From Methylophilaceae bacterium (lineage in GTDB: Bacteria; Pseudomonadota; Gammaproteobacteria; Burkholderiales; Methylophilaceae), in the NCBI GenBank assembly GCA_027488395.1, contig JAIYBT010000015.1:116679-180678 (forward strand): a stretch of 64,000 bases of DNA, given 5' to 3'. This document shows, piece after piece, positions 21,038 through 32,775 of this stretch. How positions within the stretch are numbered: position 1 is the first letter of the stretch; every line of letters begins with the position of its first letter. The position numbers were made by a program, and so were the translations under genes. Below the pieces are notes generated by a model. It was not told where the DNA came from and made no database searches. It saw only the letters and a list, made by a program, of their open reading frames with translations.

Positions 21038-23089
21038 TTACACCTTTACCCATTCACTGCCCAAGCTTAACCAGCGCTGACAATGCGCATCTACTGCCTC
21101 TGGCGTTTGTTCTAATAAGCGCACGGCGACCAGTTTTGCTTGATCGAGCAATTCAACATCACGTTCTAAATCAGCAATTTTTAACATGGGTACACCGCTT
21201 TGGCGGGTACCTAATAACTCACCAGGACCACGTATGGTTAAATCGGCTTGGGCAATGGCAAAACCATCGGTGCTTTCATAAATCACTTTTAGCCGTGCAC
21301 GACCAAGTTTTGTGCATTGTTGACGGTTATACAGCAAGATACAGGTGCTTTTTGCCGCGCCACGGCCGACGCGGCCACGCAGTTGATGCAGTTGGCTTAG
21401 GCCCATACGTTCGGCGTGTTCAATCACCATTAAACTGGCATTGGGCACATCAACACCTACCTCAATCACGGTGGTTGCCACCAGTAGTTGCAGTTGGTTA
21501 GTAGCAAAACCCATCATCACCGCTTGTTTTTCTGCAGGTTTCATACGGCCATGCACCAAGCCCACTTTAAGCTCGGGAAACGCACTTTGCAGATAAGCAT
21601 AGGTATCGTTGGCGGTTTGCAGTTGCAAGGCTTCTGATTCTTCAATCAGCGGGCATACCCAATAAGCTTGCTGACCTTGTAAGCAGGCTTCCCGCACTCG
21701 TAGTAACACTTCTTCGCGCCTATCATCGGCAACCAGTTTGGTCACAATCGGCGTTCTGCCTGGCGGTAACGCATCAATCGTGGACACATCTAAATCGGCG
21801 TAATAACTCATGGAGAGTGTTCGCGGAATGGGGGTGGCGGACATCATCAGTTGATGTGGTTCCAGCTGTGCGTGTTGGCCCTTTTTGCGTAAGGATAACC
21901 GTTGCTGTACCCCAAAACGGTGTTGCTCATCGACTATCGAAAGACCAAGTTGCTTAAAGCTAACGTGATCTTGAAACAAAGCATGGGTGCCGACTGCAAG
22001 CATGGCTTTACCACTGCTGAGATCGGCAAGTGACTGCTCACGTTCTTTTTTGGGTTGGCTACCAGTCAGCCATGCAACATCGATGCCCAATGGGCTTAAC
22101 CAACCATGTAATTTTTTATAATGTTGTTCAGCTAAGATTTCGGTGGGCGCCATCATGGCAACTTGCCAGCCTTGTTCAATCAATTGTAATGCGGCAATAC
22201 AAGCCACCACAGTTTTGCCACTGCCCACATCGCCCTGCAATAAGCGTTGCATCGGATGCGCCTGCTGCAAATCGTGCGCAATTTCATGCACCACTTTTTG
22301 CTGCGCAGCGGTCAATTGAAAAGGTAACTTGGCGAGCAGTTGAGGTACTAAACGTTGGGAAGGGGCAATAGCAGGCGCATGGGATTGCTTGCGTCTGGCA
22401 TAGTGTTGGCGCATCGACAGTTGTTGTGCCAATAATTCATCGTAGGCGAGTCGTTGCCAAGCGGGGTGACTACGGTCCTCTAAGCTTGAATAAGCAATGT
22501 CAGGCGTTGGCTGATGGAGTAGGCGCAGACTATTTGCAAAGCTAGGGTGATTCAACGTGGCATACACCCAGGTCGGTAGCGTTTCCTCCAAGGTGCAAAG
22601 CGTTAAACATTTTTGAACGGCTTTACGTAATGCGGTTTGGCTCAAACCAGCCGTTGTAGGGTACACGGGGGTAAGATTAGTACTGACGGGTGTGTCTTCT
22701 AGCACTTTACGTTGTTGCGGATGTACCATCTCATAGCCAAAAAAGCCAGCGCGTACCTCGCCGTAAACACGCAAACGCGTGCCAACTTGCATGGCTGCAA
22801 TTTGGCTGGGATAAAAGTGCATGTAACGCAGTGCCAATACACCACTGGCGTCTTCGATGCGCACTTGCAAAGCGCGACGGGGCTTGTAGCTCACCTCAGC
22901 ATGCACAACCACACCTTCAACTTGCGATTGCTCACCAACCCGCAAATCACGAATCAACGTGACCCGTGTTTCATCTAAATAACGTAGCGGTAAATGTAAC
23001 AAAAGCCCTGCAGGCGCATAAATGCCTAATTTAGAGAGTTGCGCGATCAGAGCGGGGCTAAACCCTTTAATCTCGCTAAAACGATGCAT
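21038..23089 (-). CDS. recG: ATP-dependent DNA helicase RecG
   Basis: RLLQGDVGSGKT, DEQHRFG, MSATPIPRT, QLHQLRGRVGRG. Confidence 0.98.
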   Translation of the reverse strand: MHRFSEIKGFSPALIAQLSKLGIYAPAGLLLHLPLRYLDETRVTLIRDLRVGEQSQVEGVVVHAEVSYKPRRALQVRIEDASGVLALRYMHFYPSQIAAMQVGTRLRVYGEVRAGFFGYEMVHPQQRKVLEDTPVSTNLTPVYPTTAGLSQTALRKAVQKCLTLCTLEETLPTWVYATLNHPSFANSLRLLHQPTPDIAYSSLEDRSHPAWQRLAYDELLAQQLSMRQHYARRKQSHAPAIAPSQRLVPQLLAKLPFQLTAAQQKVVHEIAHDLQQAHPMQRLLQGDVGSGKTVVACIAALQLIEQGWQVAMMAPTEILAEQHYKKLHGWLSPLGIDVAWLTGSQPKKEREQSLADLSSGKAMLAVGTHALFQDHVSFKQLGLSIVDEQHRFGVQQRLSLRKKGQHAQLEPHQLMMSATPIPRTLSMSYYADLDVSTIDALPPGRTPIVTKLVADDRREEVLLRVREACLQGQQAYWVCPLIEESEALQLQTANDTYAYLQSAFPELKVGLVHGRMKPAEKQAVMMGFATNQLQLLVATTVIEVGVDVPNASLMVIEHAERMGLSQLHQLRGRVGRGAAKSTCILLYNRQQCTKLGRARLKVIYESTDGFAIAQADLTIRGPGELLGTRQSGVPMLKIADLERDVELLDQAKLVAVRLLEQTPEAVDAHCQRWLSLGSEWVKV

Positions 23090-23112: not shown

Positions 23113-25326
23113 TTATTGAATACGTTGTTGCTCAAGAGACACGCCTTTAACCCGATTAATGCGCACCACTTGTTGAATTTTACGTAAATTGCGTATTAAC
23201 TCAGCCAAGTGCACGCGGTTATGCACTTGAACTGTAAAGTTAACATTCGAATACTGGCTACCATCACTGTCTTCAACCCCAACATTATCAATATTTGAGT
23301 CAGAATTAGAAATCGTAGACGCAATTTTGGCAAGCATGCCGCGTTCGTTGACCACAGTAATACGTAAATTAACTTTAAATAGTTTTTTGTGATCGGCATC
23401 CCACTCCACATCCAACCATTTTTCAGGATCTAATTTAAATTTACGGATGGCCAAGCAATCATGGGTATGAATCACCAAGCCTTTGTCTTTATTAATAAAC
23501 CCTAAAATCGGATCGCCAGGAATTGGGCGGCAACACTGCGCAAACTGGACGGCCATGCCTTCAGAACCACGGATGGTAATCGTATCGAGTGGTTTGGTTT
23601 TATCATCATTTTCATGTGCAGGGTGGGCAAGCAATTGATGCGCCACCATCAGACTATTGCGTTTACCCAAGCCAATATCGGTCAAAATGGCTTGTCTGGT
23701 TTTTGCGCCATAATCGTTCATTACTTTTTGCCATTGTTTTTCAGCCACCTCTTGTGGTTCAACATGCATGGCGCGCAGGGCAACGTTCAACATACGCTCA
23801 CCCAATTGTGCTGATTCTTCCACTTTTACCGTTTTCAGGTAATGACGAATATGTGAGCGTGCTTTGCCGGTAACCACATAATTCAGCCAAGCAGGATTGG
23901 GCTTGGCGAGCGGTGCAGTGATAATTTCAACATGATCGCCATTGCGCATTTCAGTACGTAACGGCGCAAGCTCATTATTAATTTTAACTGCGACACAACT
24001 GTTACCCACATCGGTATGCACGGCATAAGCAAAATCAACCGCCGTTGAACCACGCGGTAAGGCCATGATGTTGCCTTTGGGCGTAAATACATAGACTTCA
24101 TCTGGAAATAAATCCACCTTAAAGTGCTCAAGAAACTCATAGCTGTCATCGCTTTCGGTTTGAATTTCGACCAAGCGTTGTAACCATTGATGGGTTTGTT
24201 GTTGCAGTTTTGTCAGATGGGCATCATTGGTTTTATACAGCCAGTGCGCCGCAACGCCAGCATCTGCAATGTTATGCATTTCTTCACTGCGTATTTGCAC
24301 CTCGATGGGCGTACCAAACGGACCAAATAAAGTGGTATGTAACGATTGATAACCGTTGGCTTTGGGAATGGCAATATAATCTTTAAACCGCCCAGGAATA
24401 GGTTTGTATAACGCGTGTAGCGCACCCAAAGCTAAATAGCAGGCCGCATTGTCTTTTACAATCACTCGAAAGCCATAAATATCGTTGATTTGCGAAAGAC
24501 GCATGGATTTTTCGGCCATTTTTTTATAAATACTGTGCAGGTGTTTTTCACGCCCCTGTACATCGTATTCAATCTGAAACAGCTTGAGTTGATTTTGGAT
24601 GGCTTCCAAAATTTTACCGATGACTTCTTTGCGATTACCGCGCGCAACCTTAATTGCCTTATCAATGACCCGAAACCGGTTGGGGTATAAGTATTGAAAA
24701 CTCAAATCTTCGAGTTCGTGGTAGATTGGATTTAAGCCAAGGCGATTAGCAATCGGCGCATAAATATCCATGGTTTCACGGGCAATGCGCTTTTGCTTTT
24801 CTGGCCGCATTGCTTGAAGGGTTTGCATGTTATGCAAACGATCCGCCAGTTTGACTAAAATAACACGCACATCTTGGCTCATGGCGAGCAACATTTTGCG
24901 GAAATTTTCTGCTTGTGCTTGCGTAGCGGTTTGTAGCTCGACTTTGTCTAACTTGGTGAGGCCATCGACTAAATCAGCCACCTGTTTGCCAAACAATTGC
25001 GTGATTTCATCATTATTCACATGGGTGTCTTCCACCACATCATGCAATAACGCAGCCAACAGCGTGGGTAAATCGAGATGCATACTGGCCAAAATACAAG
25101 CCACTGCAACCGGATGGGTGATGTACGGCTCACCCGTTTTGCGGGTTTGGCCATCGTGCGCGCGTTCCGCGTAACGATAAGCTTGCCAAACCAGCTGGAT
25201 TTCTTCTTCGGTGAGGTATTTCTTGATGCGCGTGGTGAGTGGCGAATCTTCGCGATCAGCAGGCAGCAATTCCGCTTCTATCAGGGCAGATTTGGATTTG
25301 CGATGTTCACCAAGAAAGGGGGACAT
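23113..25326 (-). CDS. spoT: Bifunctional (p)ppGpp synthetase/hydrolase SpoT
   Basis: HD hydrolase HDVVED, KLADRLHN, synthetase YQSLHT/EVQIR, TGS domain DFAYAVHT, C-terminal ACT-like domain. Confidence 0.97.
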   Translation of the reverse strand: MSPFLGEHRKSKSALIEAELLPADREDSPLTTRIKKYLTEEEIQLVWQAYRYAERAHDGQTRKTGEPYITHPVAVACILASMHLDLPTLLAALLHDVVEDTHVNNDEITQLFGKQVADLVDGLTKLDKVELQTATQAQAENFRKMLLAMSQDVRVILVKLADRLHNMQTLQAMRPEKQKRIARETMDIYAPIANRLGLNPIYHELEDLSFQYLYPNRFRVIDKAIKVARGNRKEVIGKILEAIQNQLKLFQIEYDVQGREKHLHSIYKKMAEKSMRLSQINDIYGFRVIVKDNAACYLALGALHALYKPIPGRFKDYIAIPKANGYQSLHTTLFGPFGTPIEVQIRSEEMHNIADAGVAAHWLYKTNDAHLTKLQQQTHQWLQRLVEIQTESDDSYEFLEHFKVDLFPDEVYVFTPKGNIMALPRGSTAVDFAYAVHTDVGNSCVAVKINNELAPLRTEMRNGDHVEIITAPLAKPNPAWLNYVVTGKARSHIRHYLKTVKVEESAQLGERMLNVALRAMHVEPQEVAEKQWQKVMNDYGAKTRQAILTDIGLGKRNSLMVAHQLLAHPAHENDDKTKPLDTITIRGSEGMAVQFAQCCRPIPGDPILGFINKDKGLVIHTHDCLAIRKFKLDPEKWLDVEWDADHKKLFKVNLRITVVNERGMLAKIASTISNSDSNIDNVGVEDSDGSQYSNVNFTVQVHNRVHLAELIRNLRKIQQVVRINRVKGVSLEQQRIQ

Positions 25327-25332
25327 AACAGG

Positions 25333-25545
25333 TTATGGTTGCCCCTTGCTGAGCAATTCAACGCCAATCTTGCCTGCAGCGATTTCACGCAGCGCAATCA
25401 CGGTTGGTTTATCTTTTAACGAGTAACCGCTAACCAAGGGATCGGAGCCATTGGCTAATTGACGCGCGCGATAGGCTGCGACTAAAGTGAGTTGAAAGCG
25501 ATTTGGAATATTTTCTAAACAATCATCGACTGTAATACGAGCCAT
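25333..25545 (-). CDS. rpoZ: RNA polymerase omega subunit
   Basis: [36 protein letters not shown]. Confidence 0.98.
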
Positions 25546-25594: not shown

Positions 25595-26206
25595 TTAGGT
25601 GAGTGATTGGATGAGTGGGGCGTGGCAGGCAGATTGTCGCGCTAAGGTTAACCGATGCGCGCGTATGATTGCCATTAAGTCTTGCAATGCCACGTCAAAA
25701 ATGTCGTTTATTGTAACATAATCAAAGGCATGCACATGACGCATTTCCTCGCGTGCTGCGGCTAAACGCCTTGCAATCACGGCTTCACTGTCTTGTCCGC
25801 GCTGGTTGAGCCGATGGGACAGCGCCTCCATCGAAGGGGGTAAGATAAAAATCAACGTCGCGCTCGGAAAAATGCGACGAATTTGCTCGGCACCTTGCCA
25901 ATCAATTTCTAAAATCACGTCACGCCCGGCATTCAACGCAGCCTGCACCGCAGTTTGTGAGGTGCCGTAATGTGCGCCATGTACTGCTGCACTTTCTAAA
26001 AAACCACCTTGCGCTTGCACAGCCAAAAACTCCGCTTCTGATACAAAATGGTAATGAATGCCTTCTTCTTCCCCAGGCCGAGGCGCGCGCGTGGTATGCG
26101 AGACCGATAATTTAAGCAATGGATCTTGATCCAACATGGCACGGACCAGGCTGGTTTTTCCCGCACCAGAGGCGGCTGAAATGACAAATAAATGACCGAG
26201 GCTCAT
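25595..26206 (-). CDS. gmk: Guanylate kinase
   Basis: [27 protein letters not shown]; likely start ATG 26206 overlapping the Anbu stop (ATGA). Confidence 0.97.
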
Positions 26207-26940
26207 GGTTGTACCCAATCTGGATTTGGTAATGCTGAAAATACCGATTTTAAGCCTTCGCCCCAACCTTTGCGAATGACCGCGTAATATGGATCTTGAT
26301 CGGTTAAGCGTTTAATCGGCGCAGCGCGCAAACTGTCTTTGGGGTAAATCATTAAATCGATCGGCATGGCCACCGATATATTGCTACGGATGGTCGAATC
26401 AAACGAAATCAACACACATTTAACGGCATCCATCATGTCAGTGTGATATTTCACAACACGGTCGATGATCGGTTTGCCATATTTGGTTTCACCAATTTGT
26501 AAATAAGGCGTATCCGCCGTGGCCTCAATAAAGTTTCCAGCAGCGTATACATTAAAAAGCCGGGGCTTTTCACCTTGAATTTGTCCTGCAACTAATACGC
26601 TCGCATTAAAATCAATGCCATGTTCCTTTAAGGCCTCACCATCGCGCTGAAACACGCTACGCATGGCAGCACCCACCACTGTTGCCGCCTCAAACATTGA
26701 CTGCACATTGAGTAGGTGAGTCGCATGCTCACTATTTTTGAGTTGTTCGCGTAACAAATTCACCACAGATTGCGTGATGGCTAAATTGCCAGCCGTTAGT
26801 AGCACAATCATGCGTTCACCATGATCTTCAAATACATGCATTTTAGGGGCAATCGCGACTTGATCCACCCCAGCGTTGGTGCGCGTATCTGAAGCCAACA
26901 CCAAACCTTGTTCCAGTAAAATGCCAACACAGTACGTCAT
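26203..26940 (-). CDS. Proteasome-type Ntn protease (Anbu family)
   Basis: N-terminal MTYCVG (Thr nucleophile after Met removal), SDTRTNAGVD, QIGETKYGKPIIDR, FDSTIRSNISV. Confidence 0.92.
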   Translation of the reverse strand: MTYCVGILLEQGLVLASDTRTNAGVDQVAIAPKMHVFEDHGERMIVLLTAGNLAITQSVVNLLREQLKNSEHATHLLNVQSMFEAATVVGAAMRSVFQRDGEALKEHGIDFNASVLVAGQIQGEKPRLFNVYAAGNFIEATADTPYLQIGETKYGKPIIDRVVKYHTDMMDAVKCVLISFDSTIRSNISVAMPIDLMIYPKDSLRAAPIKRLTDQDPYYAVIRKGWGEGLKSVFSALPNPDWVQP

Positions 26941-26970
26941 AACATTGTGACCGTTGTTCGATAAACCATG

Positions 26971-26979
26971 ATCATAACA
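26971..26979 (-). promoter_or_regulatory. Possible extended -10 promoter for Anbu-gmk-rpoZ-spoT
   Basis: TGtTATGAT on the minus strand about 30 nt upstream of the Anbu ATG; no good -35. Confidence 0.4.
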
Positions 26980-27244
26980 TGGGCGCTTACCGACGACGAT
27001 GGTGCGCTTTTGTACGCATACATTGCCGTGTTGTTAGCTATGGGGGTATGAATGTAGGGGAACTGTGCTTAATATCAAGCAATGGTTCCGCATGCGTGCA
27101 GTCGATACAATCGTTGTTAAGACAATCAATTTACAAGAGCGCCTAAGATTACATCAGGCTGATAGCCTTGACTGCTTTGCCTGTGCGGGGCGCATGAAAA
27201 AAACTAAACCACCCAGCAATGCTTAGCGCAACATAGACGCTAGC

Positions 27245-27277
27245 AAAAATTCCAACGGCTTAACGATAATTGGAATT
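27245..27277 (-). terminator. Possible weak terminator after the alpha-E gene
   Basis: AATTCCAA-14 nt-TTGGAATT stem ending in a short U-run on the minus strand. Confidence 0.35.
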
Positions 27278-27295
27278 GTCACAACATCAGGTCAT

Positions 27296-28240
27296 TTATA
27301 CCGTAGCGTTTAAGAAGCTACGTTGGATCTCATCGCCTAAACGACGGTTAGCCAAAATAAAATCATCTAAAAAGGTGTGTAAGCCGTCTTTTAAAATATC
27401 CAGCATACGGCCGTAGTGCAGTGTTGCATGCGTCTGCCCAGCCAACCGTTCAGCTTCGGTTTGGCGTGCCCCTGCGACTTGTCGCAAAATCGGCATGATC
27501 TCTGCATAGCAAGCATGCAATGAGCGCGGCATATCTTGTCTAAGTACCAATAGCTCAGAGACTTTCACCGGGTCTATCGCATCGCTGTAGACTTTTTGGT
27601 AGGCCTGAAACGCAGACACCGAACGCAGGACTGCACTCCATTCGTAGTAATCCACGGCGCCATCGTTGGCTGCTTGCTGAGGTATCAATACCTCATATTT
27701 CACATCGAGTAAGCGCGCGGTATTGTCAGCACGCTCCATAAAGGTTCCTAAGCGTACAAAGTTAAATGCATCATCGCGTAGCATGGTGCCAAAACATACG
27801 CCTCGGAATAAATGGGAGCGGCTTTTTACCCATTCGCAAAACTCACCCAAGCCAGATTGGGTTAAATCTTGTTTAATATACTGGCCAAACTCGAGCCAGA
27901 GGGTGTTCATGTTTTCCCAAGTTTCGACCGTCATGGCGACCCGCACGGCCCGCGCGTTTTCACGGGCACTGCGCAAAGTGCTGTAGATGCTCGAAGGATT
28001 GTGGCTATCCATGACCAAATGTTTAATCACATTGGTCGCATTAATGGTTGGATACGTGCTGTCAAAAATGTGTCGGATGCCCGCAATTTCTAATACCGCA
28101 TTCCACAAATCATGCTCGTTGCTGCTGTCACTGGGCAATAGTGACATGTTGTAGGTCACATCCAATACCCGTGCCACATTCTCTGCACGCTCTATATAGC
28201 GTGCCATCCAATATAAATTATCTGCAGTGCGGCTTAACAT
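27296..28240 (-). CDS. Alpha-E domain protein (DUF403 family)
   Basis: MLSRTADNLYWMARYIERAEN, ARENARAVR, second ER motif GTFMERADNTARLLDVK, PRSL. Confidence 0.93.
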   Translation of the reverse strand: MLSRTADNLYWMARYIERAENVARVLDVTYNMSLLPSDSSNEHDLWNAVLEIAGIRHIFDSTYPTINATNVIKHLVMDSHNPSSIYSTLRSARENARAVRVAMTVETWENMNTLWLEFGQYIKQDLTQSGLGEFCEWVKSRSHLFRGVCFGTMLRDDAFNFVRLGTFMERADNTARLLDVKYEVLIPQQAANDGAVDYYEWSAVLRSVSAFQAYQKVYSDAIDPVKVSELLVLRQDMPRSLHACYAEIMPILRQVAGARQTEAERLAGQTHATLHYGRMLDILKDGLHTFLDDFILANRRLGDEIQRSFLNATV

Positions 28241-29724
28241 ACCACCTCTTTATTGATGAACTGACTGGCATCTTGATGTTGTGACGCAGTTTGACCGATA
28301 TCATCCCGCTCAAGTACCCAAGTATCTTTGGTACCGCCACCTTGAGATGAATTCACCACCAATGAGCCCTCTTTTAAAGCGACCCGTGATAAACCACCTG
28401 GGACCACGCTAACCGATTTGCCTGATAACACAAATGGACGCAGATCCACATGGCGAGGCGCAATCCCTTGATCGACCAAAGTGGGGCAAGTCGATAATGC
28501 AAGGGTAGGTTGCGCAATGTAGTTGTCTGGTTTAGACACAATTCTGAGTCGAAACTCTTCGATTTCCTGATGGCTGGCGGTTGGCCCAACTAACATGCCA
28601 TAACCGCCAGAGCCTTGTACTTCTTTCACCACCAACTCCGCTAAATGTGCAAGCACATAAGCCAAATCATCGGCTTTGCTGAGTTGATACGTGGGCACGT
28701 TTTGCAGGATAGGCGTTTCACCTAGGTAGAACTTAATCATCTCCGGCACGTAAATATACGTTGCCTTGTCATCGGCAACGCCGGTGCCTACGGCGTTGGC
28801 CAATGTGACGCCACCGTTGCGGTAGACGGAGAGTAGACCCGGTACGCCCAACATGGAATCAGGCTTGAACACCAGTGGGTCTAGGTAGTCGTCGTCAATG
28901 CGGCGGTAAATCACGTCGACCCGTTTAGGGCCTTGCGTGGTACGCATATAGACGGCGTTATTGCGGACAAACAAATCTTGGCCTTCGACTAATTCAATGC
29001 CCATTTGTTGGGCTAAAAAGGCGTGTTCAAAATAAGCGCTGTTATACGCACCAGGTGACATCAGCACCACGGTTGGATCAGTAATTCCAGTTTGCGCTAC
29101 CGAGCGTAAGTTGTTGAGTAACACCTGTGGATAATGCTCGACCGGTGCAATGGGGTACTGACGGAATAAATCTGGAAATAACCGCATCATCATTTTGCGG
29201 TCTTCCAACATATACGACACGCCAGAAGGGGTACGCAGATTATCTTCTAATACGTAAAACTGCGATTCGCTGGTGCGCACCAAATCAATACCCGCCACAT
29301 GCGCATATACCTTGTTTGGCACATCGACCCCGACCATTTCAGGACGGTATTGACTATTGGTTAAGATGTTTTGTGGGACGATACCCGCTTTGATAATTTC
29401 TTGGTCATGATAAATATCATGTAAAAAAAGATTGAGCGCACGCACGCGTTGCACCGCGCCTGTGGATAGATGCGCCCATTCGCTGGCAGAAATCATGCGT
29501 GGAATCACATCAAACGGAATCAAGCGCTCAGCGCCATCTTCCTCACCATATACGTTAAAGGTAATGCCTACGCGGCGAAACAACACTTCTGCTTCCGCGC
29601 GTTTTGCCACCAGTTGTTGGGTGGGTACATTGGCTAACCAACGTTGATAGGCTTGATAGATCGCACGGACGTTGCCGCCATAGGCTTGCATCTCATCAAA
29701 AAACTGTTTGGCCGACTGCGTCAT
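28234..29724 (-). CDS. Circularly permuted type 2 ATP-grasp protein
   Basis: GITFNVYG, LEDNLRTPSGVSY, NSAYFEHAFLA, DVIYRRIDDDYLDP, VVNSSQGGGTKDTWV. Confidence 0.93.
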   Translation of the reverse strand: MTQSAKQFFDEMQAYGGNVRAIYQAYQRWLANVPTQQLVAKRAEAEVLFRRVGITFNVYGEEDGAERLIPFDVIPRMISASEWAHLSTGAVQRVRALNLFLHDIYHDQEIIKAGIVPQNILTNSQYRPEMVGVDVPNKVYAHVAGIDLVRTSESQFYVLEDNLRTPSGVSYMLEDRKMMMRLFPDLFRQYPIAPVEHYPQVLLNNLRSVAQTGITDPTVVLMSPGAYNSAYFEHAFLAQQMGIELVEGQDLFVRNNAVYMRTTQGPKRVDVIYRRIDDDYLDPLVFKPDSMLGVPGLLSVYRNGGVTLANAVGTGVADDKATYIYVPEMIKFYLGETPILQNVPTYQLSKADDLAYVLAHLAELVVKEVQGSGGYGMLVGPTASHQEIEEFRLRIVSKPDNYIAQPTLALSTCPTLVDQGIAPRHVDLRPFVLSGKSVSVVPGGLSRVALKEGSLVVNSSQGGGTKDTWVLERDDIGQTASQHQDASQFINKEVVC

Positions 29725-29768: not shown

Positions 29769-29784
29769 AGCAAACGCTGTGCCA
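29769..29784 (-). promoter_or_regulatory. Sigma54 (-24/-12) promoter of the ATP-grasp/alpha-E unit
   Basis: Minus strand TGGCAC-AGCGT-TTGCT, exact match to TGGCAC-N5-TTGCW. Confidence 0.88.
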
Positions 29785-29845: not shown

Positions 29846-29886
29846 CGCACCTATTTGGTGCGTTTGAGAATCACGGTTTTGGTGCA
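29846..29886. promoter_or_regulatory. Two NtrC-type enhancer sites
   Basis: CGCACC-TATTT-GGTGCG (29846-29862, perfect palindrome) and minus-strand TGCACCAAAACCGTGAT (29870-29886); centres about -96 and -120 from the predicted TSS near 29758. Confidence 0.78.
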
Positions 29887-29946: not shown

Positions 29947-30828
29947 TTATTCTAGGTTTTGAATTTGTTCACGCATTTGCTCAATCAGCACTTTAAGTTG
30001 CATTGAGATTTGTGTGGTTTCAATCGCAACCGATTTTGAGCCTAAGGTGTTGGCTTCTCGGTTCATCTCTTGCATCAAAAAATCAAGCTTTTTACCGACA
30101 CTACCACCTGCCTCAAGGATGCGTGCCACTTCAGTGATGTGTGACTGCAAACGCGCCAGTTCTTCATCCACATCGATACGTTGCGCAAACAAGACGATTT
30201 CCTGACGCACCCGCTCATCATCGGCCAGCATCGCCTCACGTAATTTTGTGATCAGCTTTTCTTGATATTGATGTATCAGCGCGGGCATCAGCGGTTTGAC
30301 TAAAGCCACTTGCTCGCGCACCAGAGATAGTTTTTCCAACATTACCTGTTTGAGCTTTTCACCTTCACGTTGCCGTGCCGCGATGAGTTCTTGGATGGTC
30401 TGTGCCAGACCGACGTTTAAGCAATCGGCCAATTGCGTGAGGTCAAGGCCTTCGCCTTGCACAACCCCAGGTAATTGATAAATATCCACCAAATTCACGG
30501 GCTGTGCTTCTGGGAAATAAGTCGACAATTGTTGAATCGCATCGGCAATTTGCGTGATTACCGCTGTGTTTAAACGCAATGCAGTGCTCGCCACATGATC
30601 TGTTTTTAAACTCAAACGGCATTCAACTTTACCGCGCCCCAATTGCGCTTGTAACTGCTCACGCACCAAGCCTTCAAATTGACGCAAACTATCCTCAATT
30701 TTGACATGCAGTTCGAGATAACGATGATTGACGGCACGACATTCAATCAACAAGGTGCCACTTTCAAAACGGCTCTCGCTGGCAGCAAAGCCAGTCATAC
30801 TTAAAATCGGTCGCGTGGTGCTTGCCAT
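29947..30828 (-). CDS. yicC: YicC/YloC family endoribonuclease
   Basis: SMTGFA, VNHRYLEL, RGKVEC, GKKLDFLMQEMNREANTLGSK, EQMREQIQNLE. Confidence 0.96.
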   Translation of the reverse strand: MASTTRPILSMTGFAASESRFESGTLLIECRAVNHRYLELHVKIEDSLRQFEGLVREQLQAQLGRGKVECRLSLKTDHVASTALRLNTAVITQIADAIQQLSTYFPEAQPVNLVDIYQLPGVVQGEGLDLTQLADCLNVGLAQTIQELIAARQREGEKLKQVMLEKLSLVREQVALVKPLMPALIHQYQEKLITKLREAMLADDERVRQEIVLFAQRIDVDEELARLQSHITEVARILEAGGSVGKKLDFLMQEMNREANTLGSKSVAIETTQISMQLKVLIEQMREQIQNLE

Positions 30829-30931
30829 GATGGGTCTCGTGCTAAGAAGGGGGTGATTGTATCAAATGCCCTAGGGTTATGCGAAAATAGACAAATTGCG
30901 TGCGCGCGTCTTGCCCTGTGGCCCAAAGGTT

Positions 30932-31861
30932 GTGAAGGTATCCCATAAAACGCAGTTTGCTTTGCCAGTTGGCACCGTCTTACACGAATACACGATTACC
31001 CGCTTATTGAGTTTGGGCGGCTTTAGTTTCGTCTATTTAGCTAAAGACGCGCAAAAGCGCACCGTCGCCATTAAAGAGTATATGCCCGTGAGCTTGGCCG
31101 AGCGCCATGGGAGCCAAGTGACGCCCAATGGCAAAAACGACACAGCCTTTAAGCATGGGATGAAGTGTTTTTTTGAAGAAGGCTTGGCACTGGCCAATAT
31201 TGAACACAAAAACATTGTGCGGGTACAAAACTTTTTTAGAGCGCACAGCACCGTGTACATGGTGATGAAGTACGAGCGCGGTAAATCGCTACAAGATTAC
31301 ATCATGGCCGTGCAACAGCCTATCCCTGAAGCGTTTTTATTGCGTATGTTTGCAGAGTTGCTCAATGGCTTGCGCGAAGTGCATTTGCGCAAAGTGCTGC
31401 ATTTAGACATCAAGCCTGCCAATATTTATATTCGGTTGGATGGCTCACCGGTGTTGTTAGATTTTGGGTCTGCGCGCCAAGCGTTGTCAGAGGCGACGCT
31501 TGCACCTACCTTCACCCCCGGGTTTGCCTCGCCAGAGCAATATTATGACCGTAAGCATTTGGGGCCTTGGAGTGATATTTACAGTATCGGCGCTAGTTTA
31601 TACGCTTGTTTACATCGCACATCCCCGCAACCAGCCAATGCGCGTATGCAACAAGATAGTTTGCAGCCAGCAAGTCAGCTCGGTAAACATATTTATTCTG
31701 AAAAATTGCTTGCGATTATTGATGAGTGTATGCAGCTTGATTATTTGCAGCGCCCCCAAAGTGTATTTTCATTACAAAAGAAAATCATCGATATCGCTAA
31801 CACGGCCGCCCCAACCACAGTGGCCGATAAACTGTTTCAACTGCTCACAAAACCATTATGA
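30932..31861 (+). CDS. Hanks-type Ser/Thr protein kinase, cytoplasmic
   Basis: SLGGFSFVY, AIKEY, HLDIKPAN, DFG, PEQ, SDIYSIG; no TM segment; likely GTG start 30932 (track 30896). Confidence 0.93.
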   Translation: MKVSHKTQFALPVGTVLHEYTITRLLSLGGFSFVYLAKDAQKRTVAIKEYMPVSLAERHGSQVTPNGKNDTAFKHGMKCFFEEGLALANIEHKNIVRVQNFFRAHSTVYMVMKYERGKSLQDYIMAVQQPIPEAFLLRMFAELLNGLREVHLRKVLHLDIKPANIYIRLDGSPVLLDFGSARQALSEATLAPTFTPGFASPEQYYDRKHLGPWSDIYSIGASLYACLHRTSPQPANARMQQDSLQPASQLGKHIYSEKLLAIIDECMQLDYLQRPQSVFSLQKKIIDIANTAAPTTVADKLFQLLTKPL

Positions 31862-32775
31862 AATTTTCCATTGCACAGGGCAGTCGTCAGGGGCCGCGGA
31901 CTTATAACCAAGACCGCTTGGCCTATACTTATAATCGTCAAGCCATTTTGATGGTCTTAGCGGATGGCATGGGCGGCCATTTGCATGGCGAGGTGGCCGC
32001 CGACATTGTCGTGAAAGGCATGATTGAAGCGTTTCATCGTGAGGCAACGCCGCTGATTGGTCATCCTGCACAGTTCTTGCGCACCCACATACAACAACTG
32101 CACACCGTCATTGAGCGTGTAAAGCAACAAAAAAATCTCCATGAATCGCCACGCACGACAGTGGTAGTGACCTTAATCCAACATAATCTTTTATTTTGTG
32201 CGCATGTTGGTGATTCTCGTTGCTATGTCTACCGAAACGGCTTGTCTGCTTTTCAAACACAAGATCATTCAGTAGTACAGTCGTTGTTACGCGAAGGCAA
32301 AATTAGCGAGACAGAGCTCAATACGCACCCACATCGCAATAAAATTTATAATTGTGTGGGGGGTGATCACGCGCCCGAAGTGGAGTTATCGGATCCGATT
32401 GCACTGATTGAAGGTGACGTCGTGTTGCTTTGCTCGGACGGGGTGTGGAACGCATTGCCCGAATTAACCATGGCGCAACATACGCTTGCTGCAGACGTCA
32501 GTGATACGGTTCACCGTTTGTTGGACGATGCCGAAGCTGCGAGTTTGCAAGGGGGTGACAATATGAGTACGGTTGCCCTGCAATGGGGGGATCGTCAACA
32601 TGCCCGCTTTACCATCTCGACCTTGGATCTACCCATTGACGGTAACACGACCATGATTAATCAAGTGAAGCTCAATGCGGATACCCCCGCCCTCGATTTA
32701 ACCGACGCTGAAATAGAACGTGCGATTGCCGAAATCCACGAAGCCCTAGGCAAAACCAGACAGATACTTAAATAA
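31858..32775 (+). CDS. PP2C/PPM-family Ser/Thr phosphatase
   Basis: [35 protein letters not shown]; ATGA overlap with kinase. Confidence 0.95.

Follow-up and report, generated by a model that had tools for sequence, protein, structure and literature searches.

Does the ligase module of the Anbu operon need the transglutaminase (TGase)-like protein that is frequently encoded with it? The question is raised by a minus-strand locus in a stretch of 64,000 nucleotides (the window) from a Methylotenera genome (G000), in which genes for a circularly permuted (CP) ATP-grasp protein, an alpha-E protein and the proteasome-like hydrolase Anbu stand together, and no TGase-like gene (Bact_transglu_N plus Transglut_core) is found within the cluster. 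Descriptions of the canonical four-gene operon were given by Valas & Bourne 2008 and by Iyer et al. 2009, and experimental work on it has dealt with Yersinia bercovieri, Pseudomonas aeruginosa and Hyphomicrobium (PMC6376114, PMC5666114). Its TGase-like gene is called "frequent" or "predominant", not obligatory (PMC5666114, PMC6376114). The locus described here is very probably the Methylotenera copy of this known operon, situated between yicC and gmk-rpoZ-spoT-recG, from which the TGase gene has been deleted and the other genes kept, organized as two transcription units. The best reading is that the ATP-grasp/alpha-E pair would function without a cis-encoded TGase, beside a separately transcribed Anbu.

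The three retained genes were identified by Pfam and structure matches as the preliminary description of this DNA had assigned them, with open reading frames (ORFs) exactly as claimed. The CP-ATP-grasp amide ligase (28234-29724, minus strand; 496 residues, with a Q-rich C-terminal tail) matched PF14403 (CP_ATPgrasp_2) at 1.5e-165, PF04174 at 1.9e-157 and the PDB entry 3n6x at 4.9e-263. Directly downstream lies the gene for alpha-E (27296-28240, minus strand; 314 residues; PF04168, 1e-97), the start of which overlaps the ATP-grasp stop by 7 nt; a search for a solved-structure homologue of alpha-E gave none. Anbu, a proteasome-beta-like N-terminal nucleophile hydrolase of 245 residues (26203-26940, minus strand; PF00227 (Proteasome), 3.5e-9), is the gene at the 3' end of the cluster and matched the solved Anbu chains 5loy, 5nyw, 5nyj, 5lox and 5nyf at 1.4e-94 to 4.9e-70. 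Its Thr2, Asp18 and Lys33 (numbered with Met1) fall in invariant or near-invariant alignment columns and correspond to the catalytic triad Thr1/Asp17/Lys32(33) given in PMC6376114. No AAA+ unfoldase adjoins Anbu, the neighbors of the cluster being yicC, gmk, rpoZ, spoT and recG.

Deletion of the TGase gene

Approximately 10 kb around Anbu was fetched from 20 relatives. Eight of the fetched congener loci have the order yicC-ATPgrasp-alphaE-TGase-Anbu-gmk-(rpoZ)-spoT, and in whole-genome matches the operon TGase was seen to adjoin Anbu in further congeners too. The slot between alpha-E and Anbu, which is taken in congeners by a TGase gene with Bact_transglu_N and Transglut_core domains (275-286 residues), is here a non-coding spacer of 355 bp (26941-27295, minus strand), recognized by congener synteny as the site of the deleted gene. 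The Methylotenera loci L046-L049, L064 and L065 differ from the present locus in carrying this gene; they are like it in having yicC upstream and gmk-spoT downstream, in the same predicted sigma54/NtrC and extended -10 elements (see below) and in protein sequence, with identities of 91% for ATP-grasp, 86-88% for alpha-E and 82-84% for Anbu. Given that near congeners carry the TGase gene in exactly that slot, its absence is meaningful. Loss of the gene is derived: the deletion took place in this species-level lineage.

The assembly from which the window comes consists of 27 contigs and is 91.7% complete, a state in which a missing gene might be an artefact of assembly or binning. However, the junction is internal to a long contig. 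A look-up of exact matches to the alpha-E protein also retrieved four Logan contigs, independently assembled from other sequencing runs, and in all four alpha-E is followed by a 352-bp spacer and then by Anbu. These spacers align with that of the window save for single-nucleotide polymorphisms (SNPs) and one 3-bp indel, so the contigs represent other strains of the same TGase-less lineage. Repetition of the junction in independent assemblies, with strain-level SNPs, already contradicts an artefactual origin, which is scarcely credible. The TGase deletion is real, fixed and shared by several strains.

The spacer had been described as holding neither a TGase ORF nor a recognizable remnant of one, and the ORF, tblastn and blastn searches agree on this. 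No ORF exceeding 55 codons is present at 26941-27295; no TGase remnant was detected there by tblastn (word size 2, E up to 100) with eight congener TGases as queries; and blastn (word size 7) with congener intergenic and TGase DNA gave matches to the flanking coding ends alone. A search of the spacer for RNA genes (Rfam) gave no credible match, the sole match being a spurious, sub-threshold microRNA. Origin from a repeat or mobile element was rejected, as the spacer is single-copy in this genome and matched none of the fetched loci. Because synonymous sites are saturated between species (the proportion of synonymous differences, pS, is at least 0.75), an old pseudogene remnant in the spacer would not be recognizable. 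The edges of the spacer look ancestral. Its last ~65 nt are homologous to the congener TGase-Anbu intergenic region, and TCTATGTTGC (27228-27237, minus strand), ~60 nt past the alpha-E stop, resembles the congener TGase starts ATGTTGC.../ATGCTGC...; the same 11-mer occurs in a second TGase-less Methylotenera (G005) at an equal distance from the alpha-E stop. TCTATGTTGC is possibly a relic of the TGase start codon region, a weak suggestion from a short match that could be due to chance. Between these edges lie ~230 nt for which the searches gave no credible match.

Selection on the retained genes

The ratio of non-synonymous to synonymous divergence (dN/dS) was determined for the window against the four strain contigs, all of which carry the deletion, and hence describes selection after the loss. 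Over the 3' 320 codons of the ATP-grasp gene, 9-11 synonymous differences were found against 1 non-synonymous difference (dN/dS ~0.03); for Anbu the counts were 10-17 and 1-2 (dN/dS 0.02-0.06). For alpha-E, the protein by which the contigs had been picked, 15-18 synonymous and 0 non-synonymous differences separate the window from the population variants. The spacer diverges among these variants by 8-11%, which is similar to the dS of the flanking genes and about the neutral rate, with only 2-4% divergence in its last 85 nt. All columns that are at least 95% conserved among 72-100 homologues are kept in ATP-grasp (150/150), alpha-E (33/33) and Anbu (52/52), and, measured against spoT, neither alpha-E nor Anbu has a higher dN than is seen between TGase-bearing congeners. 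Saturated dS made between-species dN/dS unusable, and gmk was ignored there because some pairs in its codon alignment were out of frame. The ATP-grasp, alpha-E and Anbu genes are thus intact and under strong purifying selection after loss of the TGase. Pseudogene-like dN/dS, the outcome named in advance as fatal to the idea of a working core, did not appear; the within-lineage values lie at 0.02-0.06.

These results also bear on the alternative that the three genes, deprived of an essential partner, are in decay and the system is disappearing. The alpha-E/Anbu interval is prone to rearrangement in the genus, where deletions, insertions and one loss of the whole module are seen, and the TGase-less species G005 has a long branch and a somewhat raised alpha-E dN relative to spoT. 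However, decay is already contradicted in the lineage under study by the low dN/dS among deletion-carrying strains and, beyond this, by the intact reading frames, the absence of any deviating conserved column in ATP-grasp, alpha-E or Anbu and by dN values for alpha-E and Anbu that are unexceptional when set against spoT. It is therefore very improbable.

TGase-less operons in other genomes

The operon of G005 likewise lacks a TGase gene, and its 335-bp spacer cannot be aligned with that of the window. A tree of gmk and spoT alone left unresolved whether G000 and G005 share one deletion, and a single shared deletion was rejected when the approximately unbiased test excluded a G000+G005 clade (p=1e-6). 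This rejection, together with the unalignable spacers, indicates that G005 lost its TGase independently.

A wider survey of layouts was made with the 80 best-scoring Anbu matches, 67 of which had adequate flanks. The canonical order ATPgrasp-alphaE-TGase-Anbu was found in 30 of the 67 loci, TGase after Anbu in 10, a compact ATPgrasp-alphaE-Anbu operon with no TGase within ~6 kb in 9, Anbu and TGase only in 7, Anbu alone in 5 and other layouts in 6; Anbu was adjacent to ATP-grasp and alpha-E in 50. Such compact three-gene operons occur, for example, in Candidatus Accumulibacter phosphatis NC_013194.1 (L095), Roseomonas metagenome-assembled genomes (MAGs; L104, L118), Tagaea (L075), Rhodovarius crocodyli (L131), Tahibacter (L140), Thermomonas (L123) and G026 (L055). 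They are like the present locus in consisting of ATP-grasp, alpha-E and Anbu with no TGase in that range. By contrast, their alpha-E/Anbu gap measures 26-150 bp (except in L125, where the alpha-E match is partial): the compact operons are established, whereas the locus here is the scar of a recent deletion from a four-gene ancestor.

In 4 of 12 checked genomes with TGase-less operons (G026 and three MAGs), no Bact_transglu_N match was found anywhere in the genome; G026, which is 98% complete, also gave no Transglut_core match genome-wide. Roseomonas-type genomes with such operons have a single stand-alone Bact_transglu_N gene elsewhere. Given the recurrence of TGase-less operons, some of them in genomes without any Bact_transglu_N gene, the TGase appears to be a facultative, loosely linked component. 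The proposal that the core may work without the TGase thereby gains support from three sides, namely purifying selection, retention of the conserved residues and the TGase-less operons elsewhere. The same recurrence shows that the unusualness implied for the locus was overstated; the feature is instead a variant, ordinary and recurrent, that arose by gene loss from a known operon, of which the TGase would be an optional part.

Two further observations concern the distribution of these families. Among 14 control genomes, Bact_transglu_N, Alpha-E and CP_ATPgrasp_2 were each detected in an identical set of 3 (Caulobacter, Synechococcus and Deinococcus), which illustrates on a small scale how tightly they co-occur. 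In two other species of the genus, G015 (L062, G015:C4:50200-61800) and G013 (G013:C207), the order is ATPgrasp-alphaE-Anbu-Anbu beside a DUF2126-TGase gene, and the two Anbu proteins are diverged paralogues, 43% and 32-33% identical to the Anbu of the window.

TGase paralogues elsewhere in the genome

The preliminary description had allowed that a TGase might act in trans and had asked for a search of the genome for Bact_transglu_N genes. This search returned paralogues and no orthologue of the lost gene. A relocated orthologous TGase was not found in the genome, the best match to the congener gene being only 31% identical. Three intact stand-alone TGase paralogues are present, 27-31% identical to the lost orthologue, and all three keep the Bact_transglu_N and Transglut_core domains together with the Cys, His and Asp columns.

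One paralogue belongs to a second amidoligase system, a cluster on contig C1 (61436-69102; L015:4436-12102), which encodes a DUF2126-TGase protein (1095 residues), a fused CP-ATPgrasp-alpha-E protein (845 residues) and a TGase (298 residues), followed by a HAD hydrolase; a sigma54-like element, TGGCAT-N5-CTGCA, lies ~50 nt upstream of the first gene. The other two are tandem TGases of 271 and 284 residues, overlapping by 4 nt, on contig C23 (96369-98035; L014:10370-12036), 81 nt downstream of map-glnD; glnD encodes the PII uridylyltransferase. Both the C23 pair and the C1 system occur also in congeners that retain the operon TGase, so these are independent loci and not replacements. Orthologues of the C23 pair (75-81% identity) are found in only some congeners and do not lie beside glnD there, the behavior of a movable cassette of two genes. 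Its candidacy as the relocated operon gene was rejected on the grounds that the orthologous pair coexists with the operon TGase in congeners and that the glnD adjacency is absent there.

A TGase might nevertheless still be needed and be supplied in trans by one of these paralogues, either the 298-residue protein of C1 or the 271- and 284-residue pair of C23. The complete domains and Cys/His/Asp columns of all three are in keeping with this, as is the lone Bact_transglu_N gene of Roseomonas-type genomes with TGase-less operons; co-regulation is plausible for the C1 cluster, which has a sigma54-like element and an equivalent in Burkholderia cenocepacia that is NtrC-dependent (PMC5491218). Set against these points are the low identity of the paralogues to the lost orthologue, the presence of the C23 and C1 genes in congeners with an operon TGase, which argues that neither was acquired after the loss, the lack of a conserved glnD adjacency, and the nearly complete genome G026, which keeps the three-gene core without any TGase-fold gene. 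Supply in trans is accordingly judged rather unlikely.

Predicted promoters and transcription units

The ATP-grasp gene is preceded by what is predicted to be a sigma54/NtrC-type promoter. A candidate sigma54 -24/-12 element, TGGCACAGCGTTTGCT (29769-29784, minus strand), lies ~45 nt before the ATG of the ATP-grasp gene; no other strict sigma54 match was found in the window, and the 2.45-Mb genome has 8 in all. Further upstream, a predicted NtrC-type palindrome, GCACCAAATAGGTGC (29847-29861, minus strand), was read in the sequence, and near it stands a second half-site-like sequence, TGCACCAAAACCGTGA (29871-29886, minus strand). In six near congeners the sigma54 element recurs at the same position (-60), as does GCACC-N5-GGTGC (-137/-138 from the ATG).

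Anbu appears to have a promoter of its own. An extended -10-like element, TGTTATGAT (26971-26979, minus strand), a putative internal promoter, lies 39 nt upstream of the Anbu ATG, and the motif TGnTA(T/A)(G/C/A)AT occurs 36-47 nt upstream of the Anbu ATG in 20/20 nearer same-genus loci, including TGase-less, insertion and Anbu-only forms. In every such locus whose flanks were examined, linkage of gmk to Anbu was confirmed. The gmk gene for guanylate kinase (25595-26206, minus strand; PF00625, 5.8e-48) begins within Anbu, its ATG and the Anbu TGA overlapping as ATGA at 26203-26206. It is followed at its 3' side by the housekeeping and stringent-response genes rpoZ (25333-25545, minus strand; PF01192), spoT (23113-25326, minus strand; identified by Pfam) and recG (21038-23089, minus strand; identified by Pfam). 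The conserved extended -10 element and the ATGA overlap together suggest that Anbu heads a gmk-rpoZ-spoT unit. The terminator-like hairpin behind alpha-E is only weak, so that transcripts from the sigma54 promoter may read through into Anbu.

Rearrangements elsewhere in the genus bear on how closely Anbu is tied to the ligase genes. In G022 (L063), Anbu-gmk is kept and the ATPgrasp-alphaE-TGase block is replaced by an unannotated 195-residue ORF; the genome has no TGase-fold gene. In G023 (L050 2865-7039) and G001 (L051 4295-6924; both in operon-forward orientation), insertions of 2.6-4.2 kb separate the TGase from Anbu, that of G023 encoding a PEP-CTERM protein. Within Methylotenera, the boundary between TGase and Anbu is a hot spot for rearrangement.

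It is conceivable, on these grounds, that Anbu is independent of the ligase module altogether and is kept as the head of, and in translational coupling to, the essential gmk-rpoZ-spoT genes, the locus being a meeting of two unrelated neighbors. This would accord with the extended -10 element at all 20 nearer loci, the ATGA overlap with gmk, the survival of Anbu-gmk in G022, the insertions tolerated in G023 and G001 and the 5 of 67 diverse loci in which Anbu stands alone; moreover, the operon proteins of Y. bercovieri were not seen to interact physically (PMC6376114). By contrast, the 50 of 67 loci with Anbu beside ATP-grasp and alpha-E argue for a functional link, and read-through past the weak hairpin would join the two units. 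Full independence of Anbu is plausible without being probable.

Regarding nitrogen, the DUF404/407-DUF403-TGase cluster of B. cenocepacia has been shown experimentally to be NtrC/sigma54-dependent (PMC5491218), and Anbu is reported to be upregulated under nitrogen limitation in Pseudomonas putida (PMC5666114 citing Hervas 2008; PMC6376114). The nitrogen link drawn in the preliminary description is supported, at the sequence level only, by the conserved sigma54/NtrC-type promoter and further by these NtrC-regulon data for related clusters. The more specific proposal of a nitrogen-storage (iso)peptide cycle, with ligase, scaffold and protease as its parts, loses weight, since Anbu seems to form a separate transcription unit with gmk-rpoZ-spoT.

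Proposed organization and relation to known systems

The preferred reading, a ligase pair that works without a cis-encoded TGase beside a separately transcribed Anbu, can be set out as follows. The sigma54/NtrC-type promoter would drive ATP-grasp and alpha-E under nitrogen limitation, and the pair would consist of an ATP-dependent amide or peptide ligase and its obligate helical partner. The conserved extended -10 promoter would drive Anbu, in translational coupling to gmk and then to rpoZ-spoT-recG. The TGase-like Cys-His-Asp enzyme would be an accessory, dispensable for the ligase pair as well as for Anbu; or else it may be replaced in part by one of the three intact paralogues.

Several points weigh against this reading. 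The zero dN of alpha-E is biased by the choice of contigs with an identical alpha-E protein, the values for ATP-grasp and Anbu being unbiased. Both promoters and the two-unit model are inferred from sequence. The layout survey is a set of best-scoring matches and not a random sample, and the MAGs may lack Bact_transglu_N through simple incompleteness, although G026 reaches 98%. At 91.7% completeness of the assembly, a relocated orthologous TGase could lie on missing sequence, and the three intact paralogous TGases could mean that TGase function has not really been dispensed with.

Compared with the canonical Anbu operon, the locus has ATP-grasp, alpha-E and Anbu in an unchanged order, and shares the absence of an AAA+ partner, the Anbu catalytic residues and, as predicted from its promoter, the link to nitrogen limitation. 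It differs in the 355-bp spacer that replaces the TGase-like gene and in the apparent joining of Anbu into a gmk-rpoZ-spoT-recG unit with its own promoter-like element. The DUF2126/ATP-grasp-alpha-E/TGase cluster (B. cenocepacia I35_5080-5083, NtrC/sigma54-dependent; PMC5491218) is like it in having homologous CP-ATP-grasp, alpha-E and TGase-like proteins and, as predicted for the present locus, control by nitrogen limitation, and is unlike it in having a large DUF2126 amidoligase-TGase protein and no Anbu. The copy of that cluster in the present genome is the one on contig C1, in which ATP-grasp and alpha-E are fused (845 residues).

The Methylotenera series, comprising four-gene operons, two independent TGase deletions, Anbu-splitting insertions and an Anbu-only form, suggests three separable modules. 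Tentatively, and with considerable doubt, these might be a self-sufficient, NtrC/sigma54-induced ATP-grasp and alpha-E pair, an optional TGase-like accessory and an Anbu protease that belongs to the gmk-rpoZ-spoT (stringent response) unit and not to the ligase. If this were true, the role of Anbu would lie with nucleotide and (p)ppGpp physiology and not with peptide tagging. The link of Anbu to gmk-rpoZ-spoT deserves attention. Peptidase or amidase activity, expected of Anbu along with a dodecameric lock-washer assembly, has gone undetected even for characterized members and no partners have been found for them (PMC6376114, PMC5666114). Likewise, no substrate has been identified for the operon ligase in published work (PMC6376114, PMC5666114). 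Here, Methylotenera provides a set of natural knock-outs in the Anbu operon, with the TGase lost in one lineage and kept in close relatives; ATP-grasp and alpha-E can be studied as a minimal pair, and TGase-less and four-gene Methylotenera under nitrogen limitation form a practical comparison for finding the product. The locus does not by itself resolve the function of the Anbu operon, and as a genomic feature it is ordinary.

Additional observations

The Q/S-rich tail noted earlier on the ATP-grasp protein exists but is not special. It is a variable, Q-rich extension of ~25 residues (within 28234-28310), ending (K/Q)E(A/V)V(I)C, which is present in all near congeners and shows no link to TGase loss. 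Both the ATP-grasp protein and the operon TGase of this clade carry Q-rich C-terminal tails (e.g. ...QQQLRQQVQAAQQ and, for the TGase, L046:6860-6940), and distant homologues are without them; Q-rich tails on partners of a TGase-like enzyme are curious.

At the other end of the locus, the upstream syntenic anchor yicC (29947-30828, minus strand; PF03755/PF08340) holds the same position in congeners. Divergent from it, overlapping genes for a Ser/Thr protein kinase (321 residues) and a PP2C phosphatase (305 residues) occupy 30896-32775 of the window on the plus strand and are followed by rph.

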